Part shown: piece after piece, positions 2,648 through 5,631 of the stretch
Numbering within the stretch: position 1 is the first letter of the stretch
Layout: each line of letters begins with the position of its first letter
NCBI GenBank assembly: GCA_002688165.1
Contig: NZCB01000006.1
Coordinates: 25,097 to 31,224 of the forward strand
Direction: 5' to 3'
DNA length: 6,128 nt
Source: Candidatus Pacearchaeota archaeon
GTDB taxonomy: Archaea > Nanobdellota > Nanobdellia > Pacearchaeales > GW2011-AR1
Position numbers and translations under genes: made by a program
The notes under the pieces: model-generated
Database searches by the model: none
What the model saw: the letters and a program-made list of their open reading frames with translations, nothing else
Told to the model about the DNA's origin: nothing

Positions 2648-3283
2648 CTATTTTGCCTGTAATTCAATAATAAGATTATCTTTAACTAAATGATATCTCA
2701 AAATGGGGAGATTAATATTAAGATTTTTTGAATAAACTTTATCCTTAGATAGGGCTTTTATTTCTACAGAATTTTCTAGTTGATTGATTAAAACATCTTC
2801 TATGTTGTCTACTCCTGGAACAACTAGCTCATAAATTATCTTGTCAGATAATCTTTTTATTCGGGATTTGGGTTCTGTTTTAGGTAATTTTGAGAATCTT
2901 TTTAATTTTTCATTAGAGATTGTGTTATTTATTTTAATTGGTTGAGAGTTTTGCATTTCATTCTCTGAAAAAACTTTTTCCCCATTAACAAAAAATTGAA
3001 CATTAAGTCCCGGATTTTTTTGTCTTTTATTATTTTGAGGATTATTCATTTCATTATTCATGTTTTTCATTTGTTTTTCTAATATTTTCATAGCACTATT
3101 AATCATCTTTTCCATAAAATTATCTGAGAAATTCATTTTTTCTTCAAGGGTAGAATCATTTATGCCTAACATTCCATAATCTTCTTGTTCATGTTTTCCT
3201 TTAAGATTTAGGCCACATGAGGGACAAAATCTATTATCGCTTTTAATTTTGCTTTCGCATCTAGAACATCTTTGACTAAACAT
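2648..3283 (-). CDS. zinc-ribbon protein with a C-terminal Hsp20/alpha-crystallin-like domain
   Basis: The N-terminus, CSRCESKIKSDNRFCPSCG, is a CxxC-x10-CxxC zinc ribbon. The middle is an Asn/Gln-rich low-complexity linker (NMNNEMNNPQNNKRQKN). The C-terminus, IIYELVVPGVDNIEDVLINQLENSVEIKA...NLNINLPILRYHLVKDNLIIELQ, resembles the sHSP pattern (..E..LPGV..EDI.V.V....L.I.....F.LP......A.Y.NGVL.I.LP). Confidence 0.6.
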   Translation of the reverse strand: MFSQRCSRCESKIKSDNRFCPSCGLNLKGKHEQEDYGMLGINDSTLEEKMNFSDNFMEKMINSAMKILEKQMKNMNNEMNNPQNNKRQKNPGLNVQFFVNGEKVFSENEMQNSQPIKINNTISNEKLKRFSKLPKTEPKSRIKRLSDKIIYELVVPGVDNIEDVLINQLENSVEIKALSKDKVYSKNLNINLPILRYHLVKDNLIIELQAK

Positions 3284-3424: not shown

Positions 3425-4117
3425 ATGGGAGAAAACTTATTAGATACACGTAAGGATGAACTATCAAAAAGATATGGAATAGATTTTGATAAACTTGAAA
3501 AGGAACAAATAAAATTAGCTAAAGATTTAACTATTAAAGATAAAATTGATTTTTCTTTAGTAGATAGATTTGGAGCTGTAGAAAATATTTTTATAAAAAA
3601 TAAGATTTTAAGTTGTTTTATAGTGGTTGATAAAGATTTTGAGATAATTGACCAAGCTTATGCATTTGAGAGGATTCCCTTTCCATATTTTCCAGGATTT
3701 AGGGGATATAGGGAACTTCCTGCAATGATTAAAGCTCTAGAAAGGCTAAATGAGAAACCAGATATAGTTTTCATTTCAGCACAGGGTATAATTCATCCGA
3801 GATTAGGTTTAGCAAGTCATTTTGGATTGGTTACTAATATCCCTTCAGTAGGAGTTTCAAGTTCTTTGATAGAATGTGAAGCTTCAAATGAAGATGCATC
3901 AGAAATTATAAATGATAATGAAGTTGTTGGAAAGGTTTTGATAAGTAAGAAAGAGAGTAATCCTCTTTATATAAGTCCAGGGAATAATATAACTGTTAAC
4001 TCTTCATATGATATTAGTAAGAAACTTATTAGATTGCCCCATAAAAGGCCTGAGCCGATTCATATAGCTGCAAAATATGCGAGGAACGTTAAAAAAGAGT
4101 TAGTAATTGAAGATTAG
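3425..4117 (+). CDS. nfi: endonuclease V family protein with a divergent active site
   Basis: The 230-aa product carries the family motifs PYFPGFRGYRE (the PYIPG wedge plus the FRE glutamate), KPDIVF, QGIIHPRLGLASHFGL (compare GIAHPR..GIASH.G), IPSVGV, NPLYISPG and RPEP. The SD TAGGAG lies 6 nt upstream of the ATG. See the findings for the missing catalytic residues. Confidence 0.88.
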   Translation: MGENLLDTRKDELSKRYGIDFDKLEKEQIKLAKDLTIKDKIDFSLVDRFGAVENIFIKNKILSCFIVVDKDFEIIDQAYAFERIPFPYFPGFRGYRELPAMIKALERLNEKPDIVFISAQGIIHPRLGLASHFGLVTNIPSVGVSSSLIECEASNEDASEIINDNEVVGKVLISKKESNPLYISPGNNITVNSSYDISKKLIRLPHKRPEPIHIAAKYARNVKKELVIED

Positions 4118-4443
4118 GTGAATTCCTTTAATCTAGGTAGAAAGAAAATTGAACTTAAGATAAAAATGCAAAACCCTAGAAATCCTAGAAGTATATAATA
4201 AATTAAGTATGATTTTTCAGTGTATAATTCTTCTTGTTCTTCTTCTTGTTCTTCTTCTTCTTCTTGTTCTTCATCATCTATTGCCAATCCTGTTAATTTA
4301 TTTTTGGCATTTATATTTTGTTCAGAAATCCCCTCTTCAACTATGTTTGATAAATTAAAAGATATTAACATTAGAACTACTAATATTGAAATAAACATGA
4401 ATGAGTTATAATACTCACTATCATAAATTTTTAATTTATTCAT
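4114..4443 (-). CDS. two-TM membrane protein with a central poly-Glu/Gln acidic tract, function unknown
   Basis: 109-aa ORF with an N-terminal TM (FMFISILVVLMLISF), the tract DDEEQEEEEEQEEEQEE, and a C-terminal TM (YLIYYILLGFLGFCIFILSSIFFL) followed by PRLKEFT. A strong SD, AGGAGG (complement of 4449-4454), lies 5 nt upstream of the ATG, and the ATG overlaps the stop of the upstream AbrB-like ORF. Confidence 0.65.
   Translation of the reverse strand: MNKLKIYDSEYYNSFMFISILVVLMLISFNLSNIVEEGISEQNINAKNKLTGLAIDDEEQEEEEEQEEEQEELYTEKSYLIYYILLGFLGFCIFILSSIFFLPRLKEFT
4228..4278 (-). repeat. in-frame triplet repeat: 17 consecutive GAA/CAA/GAT codons on the minus strand, TTC/TTG/ATC on plus
   Basis: The plus strand reads ttc ttc ttg ttc ttc ttc ttg ttc ttc ttc ttc ttc ttg ttc ttc atc atc. 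This encodes DDEEQEEEEEQEEEQEE within the 4114-4443 CDS. Confidence 0.9.
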
Positions 4444-4592
4444 TTGCCCCTCCTTATTTCATTAGTGTCTAAATTTATTGCTAAGAAATCTCCTTCATCG
4501 AGATCAAATCTATCTATGGTATCTTTGGGAATAGTGACTACAAAACTATTTCCTACCTTTCTCAATCTTACATCAAATTTTCTGTCATTCAT
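4440..4592 (-). CDS. SpoVT/AbrB-fold (MazE/VapB-like) DNA-binding mini-protein, 50 aa; absent from the supplied ORF track
   Basis: Manual minus-strand translation gives MNDRKFDVRLRKVGNSFVVTIPKDTIDRFDLDEGDFLAINLDTNEIRRGK*. The segment RKVGNSFVVTIPKD......L.EGD is the classic swapped-hairpin AbrB/MazE signature. The TGA stop (4442-4440) overlaps the ATG (4443-4441) of the next gene. Confidence 0.75.
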   Translation of the reverse strand: MNDRKFDVRLRKVGNSFVVTIPKDTIDRFDLDEGDFLAINLDTNEIRRGK

Positions 4593-4612
4593 TTTTTATT
4601 ATATTTATCTTC

Positions 4613-4629
4613 CTTAGAAATTTTCTAAG
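4613..4629. promoter_or_regulatory. 17-bp palindrome CTTAGAAA-T-TTTCTAAG, a candidate operator overlapping the expected TATA position of the AbrB-like operon
   Basis: The 8-bp arms are exact reverse complements. The centre (4621) is about 29 nt upstream of the ATG at 4592, the same spacing that TATA boxes show at other leaderless-looking genes in this window. Confidence 0.4.
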
Positions 4630-4661
4630 AAAAATAAAAACACTGGGGAAAATCCCCAGTG
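4630..4661 (-). terminator. GC-rich perfect hairpin (9-bp stem, 3-nt loop) followed on the minus strand by TTTTTATTTTT; terminator- or attenuator-like
   Basis: CACTGGGGA (4641-4649) and TCCCCAGTG (4653-4661) are exact reverse complements. The plus-strand AAAAATAAAAA at 4630-4640 reads as a T-tract immediately 3' of the hairpin on the minus strand. No minus-strand CDS lies upstream of it. Confidence 0.4.
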
Positions 4662-4682
4662 CACCTCTTTATCCCTTTCAGA

Positions 4683-4704
4683 GCTGTATATACTATGTAT
4701 ATAC
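4683..4704. repeat. operator-like module copy 1: GCTGTATATAC-TA-TGTATATAC, with two GTATATAC palindromes 11 bp apart
   Basis: GTATATAC occurs at 4686-4693 and 4697-4704. The 22-nt module recurs at 4744-4765 with 2 mismatches. Confidence 0.85.
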
Positions 4705-4706
4705 CC

Positions 4707-4716
4707 TATTTAAATA
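4707..4716. promoter_or_regulatory. palindromic TATA-like box TATTTAAATA, potentially bidirectional
   Basis: Perfect 10-bp palindrome. It is centred about 29 nt upstream of the ATG at 4741 on the plus strand. On the minus strand it is about 28 nt upstream of position ~4684. Confidence 0.35.
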
Positions 4717-4731
4717 TTTCTACAGGCGAAT

Positions 4732-5631
4732 ATGATTGAAATGGCTGTATATACATTGTATATACTATATATTTATAAAACTTTTTTTCTTAATATATTC
4801 AAGATGTGCTTTACACCAACAATATCTCTAACAACTGCAATAATAGAATTTCTCGTAGTTATTTACCTAATAAAACGAATTAAAGATAAAAGCCTAAGAG
4901 CCCTTCCTTGGATTATTTTAATTCTCGGATTATATCAATTAACTGAATTTTTTTTATGTACAACAAATAATCAGATATGGCCTAAATTAGGATTTATTAT
5001 GTATACTTTCTTACCTATTTTATTGATGCAATTGTTTTATGATTTATCTAATAAAAAATTAAATAAATTAACATATTTGGTTCCATTGACTTATGCGGCT
5101 ATTGCATTATTTTATCCTGGATTTAATATTTCTGCAACTTGTGAAACTTTTTTTCTAAATATTAAGAATTTATTTCTGTGGGGGAATAAGGCATTACTTT
5201 GGATTTATATATTATACTATGGACTATTTCCCTTATATGGAGCATATGTTTTTATTAATAATAAAAGTAAGATAAATGAAGAGAATAATCAAAAAATAAG
5301 GATTTGTTATATGTTGATTCCAGTAGCATTAATTTTGGCCCAGGCAATTTTAATTATAATGTTTAATAAAGTTAATAATTCTCCTATATGGATAGCAACA
5401 AGTGCGGTATTAATAATGGTCTCTATAATTTTAATGATTATGTCATTTACAAAAATAAAGATAAATGCGTTTAAAAATATATTATTAGTAGTTTTATTTG
5501 GTTCGGTAATGATGGCATATTTGTTATATCAGTTACTTCCAGAATTTGGAATAAGATTTGCATCAATTTATTGTCAATTCTCATTACTCTATGCAATAGC
5601 TGCAATTTTATATGTAGAATCAACTCATTAA
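4732..5631 (+). CDS. polytopic integral membrane protein (about 8 TM segments), function unknown; start codon ambiguous (4732, 4741 or 4804)
   Basis: The 299-aa ORF has many long hydrophobic stretches separated by short Lys/Asn-rich loops. I see no recognisable catalytic motif and almost no His. The first 24 codons are encoded by the duplicated operator and TATA module, so the true start is likely 4741 or 4804. Confidence 0.7.
   Translation: MIEMAVYTLYILYIYKTFFLNIFKMCFTPTISLTTAIIEFLVVIYLIKRIKDKSLRALPWIILILGLYQLTEFFLCTTNNQIWPKLGFIMYTFLPILLMQLFYDLSNKKLNKLTYLVPLTYAAIALFYPGFNISATCETFFLNIKNLFLWGNKALLWIYILYYGLFPLYGAYVFINNKSKINEENNQKIRICYMLIPVALILAQAILIIMFNKVNNSPIWIATSAVLIMVSIILMIMSFTKIKINAFKNILLVVLFGSVMMAYLLYQLLPEFGIRFASIYCQFSLLYAIAAILYVESTH
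4744..4765. repeat. operator-like module copy 2: GCTGTATATAC-AT-TGTATATAC
   Basis: GTATATAC occurs at 4747-4754 and 4758-4765, exactly 61 bp from copy 1. It is followed by the TATA-like TTTATAAAA at 4772-4780, which is about 28 nt upstream of the ATG at 4804. Confidence 0.85.

Follow-up and report, generated by a model that had tools for sequence, protein, structure and literature searches.

The closest characterised relatives of the AbrB-fold protein described here are the AbrB-type Phd antitoxins of Doc toxins, represented by the EFPhd–EFDoc system of E. faecalis. Residues 1–55 of the 79-residue E. faecalis Phd constitute an AbrB-like N-terminal domain, which binds the operator 5'-TGTATATACA-3' as established by electrophoretic mobility shift assay and crystal structure, and binding is lost in K8A/R10A/N14A; DNA binding does not involve the C-terminal region, and residues 54–57 have been mutated to probe the Doc interface (PMC13034048). 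Here, we analyse two small overlapping genes in a stretch of 6,128 nucleotides (hereafter 'the window') of contig NZCB01000006.1 from a Candidatus Pacearchaeota archaeon, which encode a 50-residue AbrB/MazE-fold protein (4440..4592, minus strand) and a 109-residue membrane protein with two transmembrane (TM) segments (4114..4443, minus strand). An earlier note on this DNA had proposed a toxin–antitoxin-like or abortive-infection-like module, with an autoregulated membrane or envelope module as its fallback. It is the fallback that the evidence favours: the locus is probably a conserved chromosomal operon of Pacearchaeota-like DPANN archaea in which an autoregulated AbrB repressor controls a small membrane protein, and not a toxin–antitoxin module.

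Other described systems provide further points of reference. MazE–MazF and VapB(AbrB)–VapC have in common with our reading of the window the PF04014 domain, an antitoxin gene in first position and autoregulation through palindromes, but their antitoxins possess a disordered C-terminal tail that wraps around the toxin, and their partners are RNases; neither feature is present in the window pair. Repressor–membrane protein pairs were set aside in the survey of Makarova et al. (2009), who also proposed that antitoxin homologues have been recruited as regulators of diverse operons (PMC2701414). The same group described another gene of toxin–antitoxin descent in DPANN archaea that is unusually conserved and stands in a housekeeping context (PMC6393860), and an AbrB/MazE-like gene upstream of archaeal hgcAB has been proposed to encode the regulator of hgcAB (PMC10349881).

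The gene pair and its operator

The 50-residue open reading frame, given in the earlier note as 4592–4440 on the minus strand, is exact in coordinates and sequence, and it is called by the gene callers of the public assemblies on every contig fetched. The junction of the two genes (4440..4454, minus strand) consists of AGGAGG at 4449–4454, the 5-nt spacer GGCAA and ATGA at 4440–4443; hence the TGA stop codon of the AbrB gene (4440–4442) overlaps the ATG start codon of the two-TM gene (4441–4443), and both the overlap and the ribosome-binding motif pointed out before are read in the sequence. The translational coupling deduced from them is supported. Where a two-TM gene follows, which is the case for 44 distinct AbrB sequences, the 4-nt overlap is found in 24. 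The other gaps in this set are mostly small (range −89 to +86 nt), and a purine-rich GGAGG-like motif is likewise present at the junction in the other lineages examined.

Upstream of the pair, the window contains four exact copies of the octamer GTATATAC, none of which lies outside 4686–4765; 0.05 copies are expected, and four were reached in none of 200 shuffles. The proximal candidate operator, GTATATAC-ata-GTATATAC (4686..4704), comprises two 8-bp palindromic boxes spaced 11 bp centre to centre, and the TATA box TTTAAATA (4707..4714, minus strand) lies 2 nt upstream of it. From the usual archaeal spacing between TATA box and transcription start site, the latter is predicted near 4684–4685. 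The unit of operator and TATA box is duplicated 61 bp upstream, where the distal candidate operator GTATATAC-aat-GTATATAC (4747..4765) is directly preceded by the TATA-like stretch TTTTATAAATATATA (4766..4780, minus strand), and the two may form a second, tandem promoter–operator unit. The distal copy contains, at 4746–4755 of the minus strand, an exact TGTATATACA, that is, the site bound experimentally by E. faecalis Phd.

The arrangement is conserved. The 19-bp pattern GTATATAC-N3-GTATATAC was found upstream of AbrB only, in 23 of the 23 loci first fetched, and both operator copies are kept in a near-identical contig (L003), from which the 299-residue neighbour of the window is absent, as well as in a sister species (L011) with a different neighbouring gene. 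More generally, a TATA box followed by the palindrome precedes AbrB in nearly all DPANN lineages, frequently as two or three tandem units (e.g. L041, L050), and in most of the loci it takes the form TTTAAATA, two to three nucleotides and the palindrome. In two loci (L016, L052) the palindrome ends 3–4 nt before the ATG, which is the spacing of a leaderless promoter; given the usual archaeal distance from TATA box to transcription start, the palindrome then separates the TATA box from the start of the leaderless transcript, which is the classical position for an archaeal repressor site. Tandem GTATA(TA)C boxes are also located just upstream of 16 of 22 Phd-like/Doc modules of Chloroflexota, in GC-rich DNA. 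From homology and position we conclude that the 50-residue protein probably binds the GTATATAC boxes and represses its own operon.

Descent of the AbrB protein

The AbrB fold assigned in the earlier note is borne out by a match of residues 11–37 to Pfam PF04014 (MazE_antitoxin; SpoVT/AbrB), the score of 29.8 bits exceeding the gathering cut-off of 24.7, and PF04014 is precomputed for all 74 AbrB homologues. These range from 49 to 85 residues, nearly all having 49–60 and being 67–98% identical, and come mostly from Pacearchaeota. The best NCBIfam match is TIGR02609 (doc_partner, 'putative addiction module antidote'), for which the score of 41.6 bits stays below the cut-off of 55.9 and the alignment covers only profile positions 2–40 of 74. 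The best profile matches in the PDB are Sso7c4 of Sulfolobus (E 2e-5) and E. faecalis Phd (E 8e-4, about 1e-3; entries 9vx7, 9vyb and 9vzc, 'addiction module antidote').

Several features are common to the window protein and AbrB-type Phd: (i) the hairpin KLRKVGNS is shared, and R9, R11 and N15 of the window protein align with the DNA contact residues K8, R10 and N14; (ii) the GTATATAC(A) boxes correspond to the operator core TGTATATACA, and the operator stands beside the TATA box or promoter; and (iii) the gene opens its operon and overlaps the one that follows. Among 30 AbrB homologues R11, K12, V13, G14, N15 and S16 are invariant, and position 9 is either lysine or arginine.

The differences lie beyond the DNA-binding domain. 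The 79-residue E. faecalis Phd and the Chloroflexota relatives of 71–76 residues carry a C-terminal tail, which is the toxin-binding segment, and the Chloroflexota genes are followed by a gene for a protein of 133–136 residues, the one example tested (L056) matching Fic/Doc (PF02661) at 56.5 bits. In contrast, the window protein stops at residue 50 and its homologues end in a short, variable, basic lysine-rich tail, so that no toxin-neutralising extension is found in them; the next gene encodes not a Fic/Doc toxin but the two-TM protein, for which Pfam and NCBIfam give no Fic match. The archaeal protein ends before the tail of its E. faecalis and Chloroflexota relatives and is thus equivalent to the DNA-binding half of AbrB-type Phd alone. 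Sequence comparison thus places the 50-residue protein in the AbrB-type Phd, or 'doc-partner', antitoxin lineage, from which it appears to derive with loss of both the toxin-neutralising tail and the Doc partner. The antitoxin ancestry surmised in the earlier note is thereby upheld. Also unlike Phd–Doc, the window locus is chromosomal, syntenic and vertically inherited, and it has an archaeal host and an archaeal-type promoter.

A monomer model of the AbrB protein obtained with AlphaFold2 (pLDDT 79, pTM 0.47) places strands at residues 9–13 and 16–20. Comparison of the window lineage with its sister species L011 by the Nei–Gojobori method yields, for the AbrB gene, dS 0.94 and dN 0.017 (synonymous and nonsynonymous divergence) and thus dN/dS 0.018, with a single amino-acid change in 50 residues; the coding constraint proposed as a check on the small reading frame is hence real. 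The corresponding dN/dS values are 0.26 for the two-TM gene and 0.13 for the endonuclease V gene.

Conservation and genomic setting of the locus

One genome per GTDB species was scanned with an AbrB alignment, which yielded 30 high-identity DPANN loci, 3 distant archaeal loci and ∼42 loci of Chloroflexota. Among the 30 DPANN species representatives, a two-TM homologue directly follows AbrB in 26, a major facilitator superfamily (MFS) gene with MFS_1 Pfam matches comes next in 15, often overlapping or abutting, and endonuclease V lies on the far side of the operon in 23, in convergent orientation in 22 of these. When all fetched loci are pooled, every one of 46 distinct two-TM homologues has an AbrB gene directly upstream, and the adjacency which the earlier note had wished to see surveyed in related archaea is conserved; a two-TM gene is located downstream of 44 of 61 distinct AbrB genes, and endonuclease V adjoins 34 of the 61. 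Three two-TM homologues that were found independently of AbrB are likewise each preceded by a 50-residue AbrB gene (3/3).

In 22 of the 61 distinct AbrB loci the operon runs on into the MFS gene. These loci resemble repressor-controlled MFS operons, with a repressor gene, an operator at the promoter and a downstream transporter gene, but the AbrB protein possesses no ligand-binding domain, an obligate two-TM protein intervenes between repressor and transporter, and the operon in the window contains no MFS gene.

Identical copies of the 109-residue protein are encoded on 23 marine metagenome contigs, mostly from Tara Oceans, and one homologue is labelled Candidatus Pacearchaeota. The pair resides on a 54-kb contig among genes for FtsZ, MCM, TBP, DNA ligase, endonuclease V, L15e and a Sua5/YciO/YrdC-family protein; the locus is a housekeeping region and not an island. 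A scan of viral contigs returned four distant AbrB relatives only, with neither a two-TM homologue nor the pair. In Pacearchaeota-like DPANN archaea the locus is vertically inherited and syntenic.

The endonuclease V gene of the window (3425–4117, plus strand; PF04493, 148 bits) converges on the two-TM gene, and the 3' ends of the two reading frames overlap by 4 nt (4114..4117).

The two-TM membrane protein

The layout described in the earlier note, with an N-terminal TM helix, an acidic tract, a C-terminal TM helix and a short basic tail, is present in the sequence and agrees with the AlphaFold2 helices. TM1 comprises about residues 13–35 (4339–4407, minus strand) and TM2 about residues 79–102 (4138–4209, minus strand), the latter being followed on the same strand by the basic C-terminal tail PRLKEFT. 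AlphaFold2 predicts confident helices over the TM segments (residues 10–50 and 76–108) and disorder, with pLDDT below 50, for residues 40–72 including the acidic tract.

Neither the 109-residue protein nor four relatives match a curated family in Pfam, NCBIfam or PADLOC, PADLOC returning nothing at all, in accord with the previous statement that no toxin or enzyme family is recognised in it. Sub-threshold matches of the TM segments (T2SSF, E 0.007; MFS_1_like, E 0.037) are chance artefacts of composition. The two-TM protein diverges quickly, relatives from other lineages being only 26–32% identical, yet it forms a coherent family: a profile search at E≤1e-3 collects 156 cluster representatives, all of 53–181 residues. 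The conserved parts of this family are a short N-terminal motif, both TM helices, the motif N-K-[IL]-[TS]-G-[FYL] after TM1, and an L-P-R-[IL]-K tail. Across the family, the density of lysine and arginine is lowest in the loop, at 0.12 per residue, as against 0.21 for the N-terminus and 0.31 for the C-terminus; with these values, the positive-inside rule favours a predicted topology in which both termini are cytoplasmic and the loop is external.

The loop is the variable part: over the family its length is 25–81 residues, its acidic residues number 1–25 and its net charge lies between −18 and +4; in a small sample of species, loops appear longer and more acidic where the operon lacks an MFS gene. 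In the window, the acidic tract DDEEQEEEEEQEEEQEE (residues 56–72; 4228..4278, minus strand) is encoded by a (GAA)n/(CAA) trinucleotide array, which Tandem Repeats Finder reports with period 3 and 15 copies at 4228–4272. Both its length and its composition differ even between close relatives, and among the near-identical P0001–P0005 the length varies, as replication slippage would give. We therefore rejected the poly-Glu tract as a functional hallmark, e.g. for cation binding or DNA mimicry: the array is variable and absent in most relatives, and the emphasis placed on the tract in the earlier note falls on a lineage-specific (GAA)n microsatellite rather than on a trait of the family.

A conserved leader RNA

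Between the operator and the AbrB start codon lies a conserved 5' leader (4593..4685, minus strand). Its elements, all on the minus strand, are a stem P1, CAGCUCU..AGAGGUG (4662–4686), a P2 hairpin, CACUGGGGA-UUU-UCCCCAGUG (4641–4661), and a T5AT5 run after the hairpin (4630–4640). The window leader has a fold energy of −22.1 kcal/mol (z = −3.55), and z-scores range from −2.8 to −4.4 in eight of nine lineages tested. The 5' part of the leader, AGCUCUGAAAGGGAUAAAGAGGUG, is nearly invariant across lineages in which AbrB is only 66–84% identical to that of the window, and it is followed by a 9–14-bp hairpin of lineage-specific sequence, the P2 stem occurring in three compensatory versions. In 1.2 Mb of fetched loci, the leader was found in 15 distinct instances, all between operator and AbrB; besides the window, loci with this leader include L021, L029, L032–L034, L041–L043, L047, L128, L135, L145 and L181.

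An Rfam search of the whole window at E≤1 gave tRNA-Ile only, which leaves the leader outside the known RNA families. Its role might be that of an attenuator, of a small RNA or of a site to which a protein binds. That the hairpin and T-run might terminate an upstream gene was considered and rejected on two grounds, namely the divergent orientation of the flanking genes and the conservation of the element as part of the AbrB leader. Past the leader hairpin, and still ahead of the AbrB start codon, lies a perfect 8+1+8 palindrome, CTTAGAAA-A-TTTCTAAG (4613–4629, minus strand), which has one mismatch in the sister species L011.

A proposed autoregulated operon and its alternatives

The most likely working of the operon is as follows. 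An AbrB dimer would read the 8-bp GTATATAC boxes through its β-hairpin (R9, R11 and N15), and dimers sitting on the boxes beside the TATA box would block transcription initiation and hold the operon at a set level; that a bound protein would do so follows from the placement of two boxes, one helical turn apart, directly after the TATA box. The transcript would begin near 4685 and bear the conserved structured leader. Ribosomes ending the AbrB gene would restart at the overlapping ATGA, aided by AGGAGG, and the two-TM protein would therefore be made in step with its repressor. The 109-residue protein is expected to insert as a helical hairpin with both termini inside and its disordered loop outside, and the MFS gene, where it comes next in the operon, might be coupled likewise. 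In view of such a coupled MFS gene in about half of the relatives, the two-TM protein is likely a membrane- or transport-associated component; although this role is weakly inferred, a component of this kind, with its dosage set by the repressor, is the most likely one.

Several observations weigh against an operon of this kind or limit what it explains. In neither the window lineage nor its sister species does an MFS gene separate the two-TM gene from endonuclease V, and the link to a transporter thus leaves the pair unexplained where no such gene is present in cis. One locus (L043) has AbrB, operator and leader but no two-TM gene; the repressor can therefore exist without it. The AbrB protein has no domain for binding a ligand, and its monomer model finds no match at E≤0.001 when searched with Foldseek against the PDB (best E 0.35, the weak matches including MazE, VapB and Sso7c4), probably for the reason that only an intertwined dimer adopts this fold. 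The exact 19-mer is present at 85 metagenomic sites, of which 20 have AbrB downstream in the same orientation, ∼20 are otherwise linked to AbrB (with AbrB inverted, more distant or separated by another gene), 8 lie at contig ends, and ∼40 have no AbrB nearby; the motif is therefore not exclusive to the AbrB protein. In addition, the T5AT5 run after the leader hairpin could stop much of the transcription before the AbrB gene is reached, and the 109-residue membrane protein, judged by its sequence, may have a toxic effect.

Second among the explanations, and possible though clearly less probable than simple autoregulation, is control of the repressor at the membrane. The two-TM protein would then be a sensor or anti-repressor whose cytoplasmic N-terminal segment, K-I-F-x-S-x-H-Y-P, binds the AbrB dimer at the membrane; with inverted topology, the acidic loop could instead act as a DNA mimic. 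Release and capture of the repressor would couple the operon to an envelope signal, in parallel to the co-repressor role of a toxin but without toxicity; we regard such coupling, too, as a minority prospect. The strict 46/46 linkage fits such a scheme, as do translational coupling, which favours matched amounts of the two proteins, and the N-terminal cytoplasmic segment, which is among the better conserved parts of the two-TM protein. Furthermore, the ancestral system has a downstream protein that modulates the repressor (PMC13034048), and for a repressor devoid of a ligand-binding domain a partner protein is a plausible signal input. However, beyond its DNA-binding domain the AbrB protein offers only a short, variable, basic tail, the predicted topology puts the loop outside the cell, the acidity of the loop is not conserved, and AbrB, operator and leader are kept in L043 without the two-TM gene.

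That the pair represents a toxin–antitoxin-like or abortive-infection-like module, in which the two-TM protein is a membrane-damaging toxin held in check by AbrB, is unlikely. Its outward form is certainly that of such a module, that is, two small genes that overlap, led by the one for a DNA-binding protein, and, at their own promoter, a palindromic candidate operator of the toxin–antitoxin type. The AbrB protein falls into a lineage of antitoxins, with TIGR02609 as its best NCBIfam match, and relatives pair with Doc. Membrane proteins next to antitoxin-type repressors were in fact left open as novel toxins by Makarova et al. (PMC2701414), although pairs within larger operons, such as the present one often becomes by running into the MFS gene, were discarded in the same study (PMC2701414). 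On the other hand, no toxin-binding tail is present, the TIGR02609 score is under the cut-off, and the pair, rather than being sporadic or mobile, has been inherited vertically and keeps its synteny with core genes in 26 of the 30 species representatives. It was not found on the viral contigs scanned, no defence or toxin model of PADLOC is matched, and the loop of the supposed toxin is a fast-evolving region of low complexity.

The rates of evolution argue in the same direction. Antitoxins tend to evolve faster than toxins; here, this asymmetry is reversed, the AbrB protein being ∼14 times more constrained than its partner. Small hydrophobic proteins are often toxic when overproduced, and toxin–antitoxin systems with membrane toxins and protein antitoxins do exist, namely CptA/YgfX–CptB, SpoIISA–SpoIISB and GhoT–GhoS. 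The window pair may be likened to these in that a small TM protein stands beside a small soluble one, but those systems are sporadic, whereas the window pair is lineage-wide and syntenic, and Pfam, NCBIfam and PADLOC reveal no similarity. Taken together, the absent tail, the housekeeping synteny, the faster evolution of the partner, the frequent extension into MFS and the lack of a toxin or defence match speak against the toxin–antitoxin or abortive-infection reading of the earlier note.

A related and equally improbable proposal is that the two-TM protein is a genuine effector governed by a tail-less AbrB protein of Phd type, acting either as a toxin on the membrane or as an envelope sensor by which the repressor is captured, within a domesticated, lineage-wide descendant of Phd–Doc in which a membrane protein has replaced Doc. 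If true, it would mark the first case in which a type II-like pair that includes a membrane component is fixed as a core DPANN gene pair, and the conserved leader RNA would add a second layer of control.

Very unlikely, finally, is the view that the 50-residue protein serves mainly as a general nucleoid-associated protein like Sso7c4 (PDB 2l66/5itj/5itm), the chromosomal DNA-compacting protein of Sulfolobus (PMC5222340, PMC3159460), and that its place beside a membrane gene has no regulatory meaning: Sso7c4 is the best PDB sequence match, is likewise archaeal, equal in size (48–54 residues) and an AbrB domain alone, and the window protein is extremely conserved, but the two hairpins differ (VKVSRNYQVTIP versus LRKVGNSFVVTIP), the conserved candidate operator at the promoter of the window gene matches the experimentally defined site of a closer hairpin relative, the net charge is about 0 (10 K/R and 10 D/E), unlike that of the basic protein expected for chromatin, and an obligate membrane-partner gene, with 46/46 linkage, is not expected of a chromatin protein.

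Implications for antitoxin reuse and regulation in DPANN archaea

The most likely outcome of this comparison is that a tail-less, antitoxin-derived AbrB repressor with a conserved operator has become fixed in Pacearchaeota-like archaea as one half of a core gene pair, the other half encoding a small membrane protein of an uncatalogued family. The locus would then exemplify the reuse of an antitoxin, of which the DNA-binding half and the operator were kept from bacterial Phd–Doc to DPANN archaea while toxin and tail are gone, and in which a new, strictly linked membrane partner stands in place of the toxin. It also defines an uncatalogued family of two-TM proteins of ∼100 residues, represented by 156 clusters and recognisable by a clear genomic signature. 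For gene regulation in uncultured, genome-reduced archaeal symbionts, a 50-residue protein and a 19-bp site provide a cheap and concrete test case, and the conserved leader RNA is a separate lead. Finally, caution is indicated when small archaeal AbrB genes are annotated as 'addiction module antidote'.

Further observations on the motif, the family and the neighbouring genes

The idea that the 19-bp palindrome is exclusive to AbrB promoters was rejected, since some sites precede small bacterial genes of MazE-like and ribbon-helix-helix (RHH) type. An exact 19-bp GTATATCTTTTGTATATAC stands directly upstream of bacterial pairs of MazE-like (MQTHLQKWGNS...) and MazF/PemK-like genes (L102, 472–1071; L140, 167–788), and it also precedes small RHH/BrnA-like genes on GC-rich contigs (L134, L139, L146, L148, L156, L164 and L170). 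Either this type of operator is common to several toxin–antitoxin families or, in a database of such great size, the matches arose by chance.

Two AbrB/two-TM/MFS operons of differing sequence (L030 and L037) were found in the same metagenome-assembled genome, JAFCDH01. Among these two and L049–L051, several operons are located directly downstream of a tRNA gene and not beside the methionyl-tRNA-synthetase-like gene. Doubled or relocated operons may result from paralogy, strain mixing or local rearrangement.

Two further genes on the minus strand of the window, encoding a 211-residue protein with an N-terminal zinc ribbon and no family assigned to the rest (2648–3283) and a 160-residue protein with no family (2112–2594), lie between endonuclease V and L15e and are syntenic with the pair across Pacearchaeota. 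On the other side, a 299-residue reading frame with multiple TM segments (4732–5631, plus strand) has no family match. Its listed start lies upstream of the distal GTATATAC operator and the frame reads through it, and the true start may hence be a later methionine (MCFTPT, ∼4804). The contig L003, though near-identical in other respects, lacks this gene, and in the sister species L011 a peptidase S8 gene takes its place, which makes it a variable insertion beside the conserved pair.

Other AbrB mini-genes of DPANN archaea, including one subfamily with the motif IPADFVERF, overlap genes whose large products are anchored by their N-terminus or resemble pilins (L016, 4001–6707; L048, 4947–5862; L105, 9519–12292; L157, 7177–9704; L055, 731–2258; L064, 3332–5045). 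These partners comprise 258–851 residues, some have Ig-like domains, and one adjoins T2SSE/T2SSF genes. A GTATATAC-type palindrome is present upstream of those AbrB loci of this kind that were checked (L016, L105 and L157), and the AbrB family may regulate genes for surface proteins more widely.

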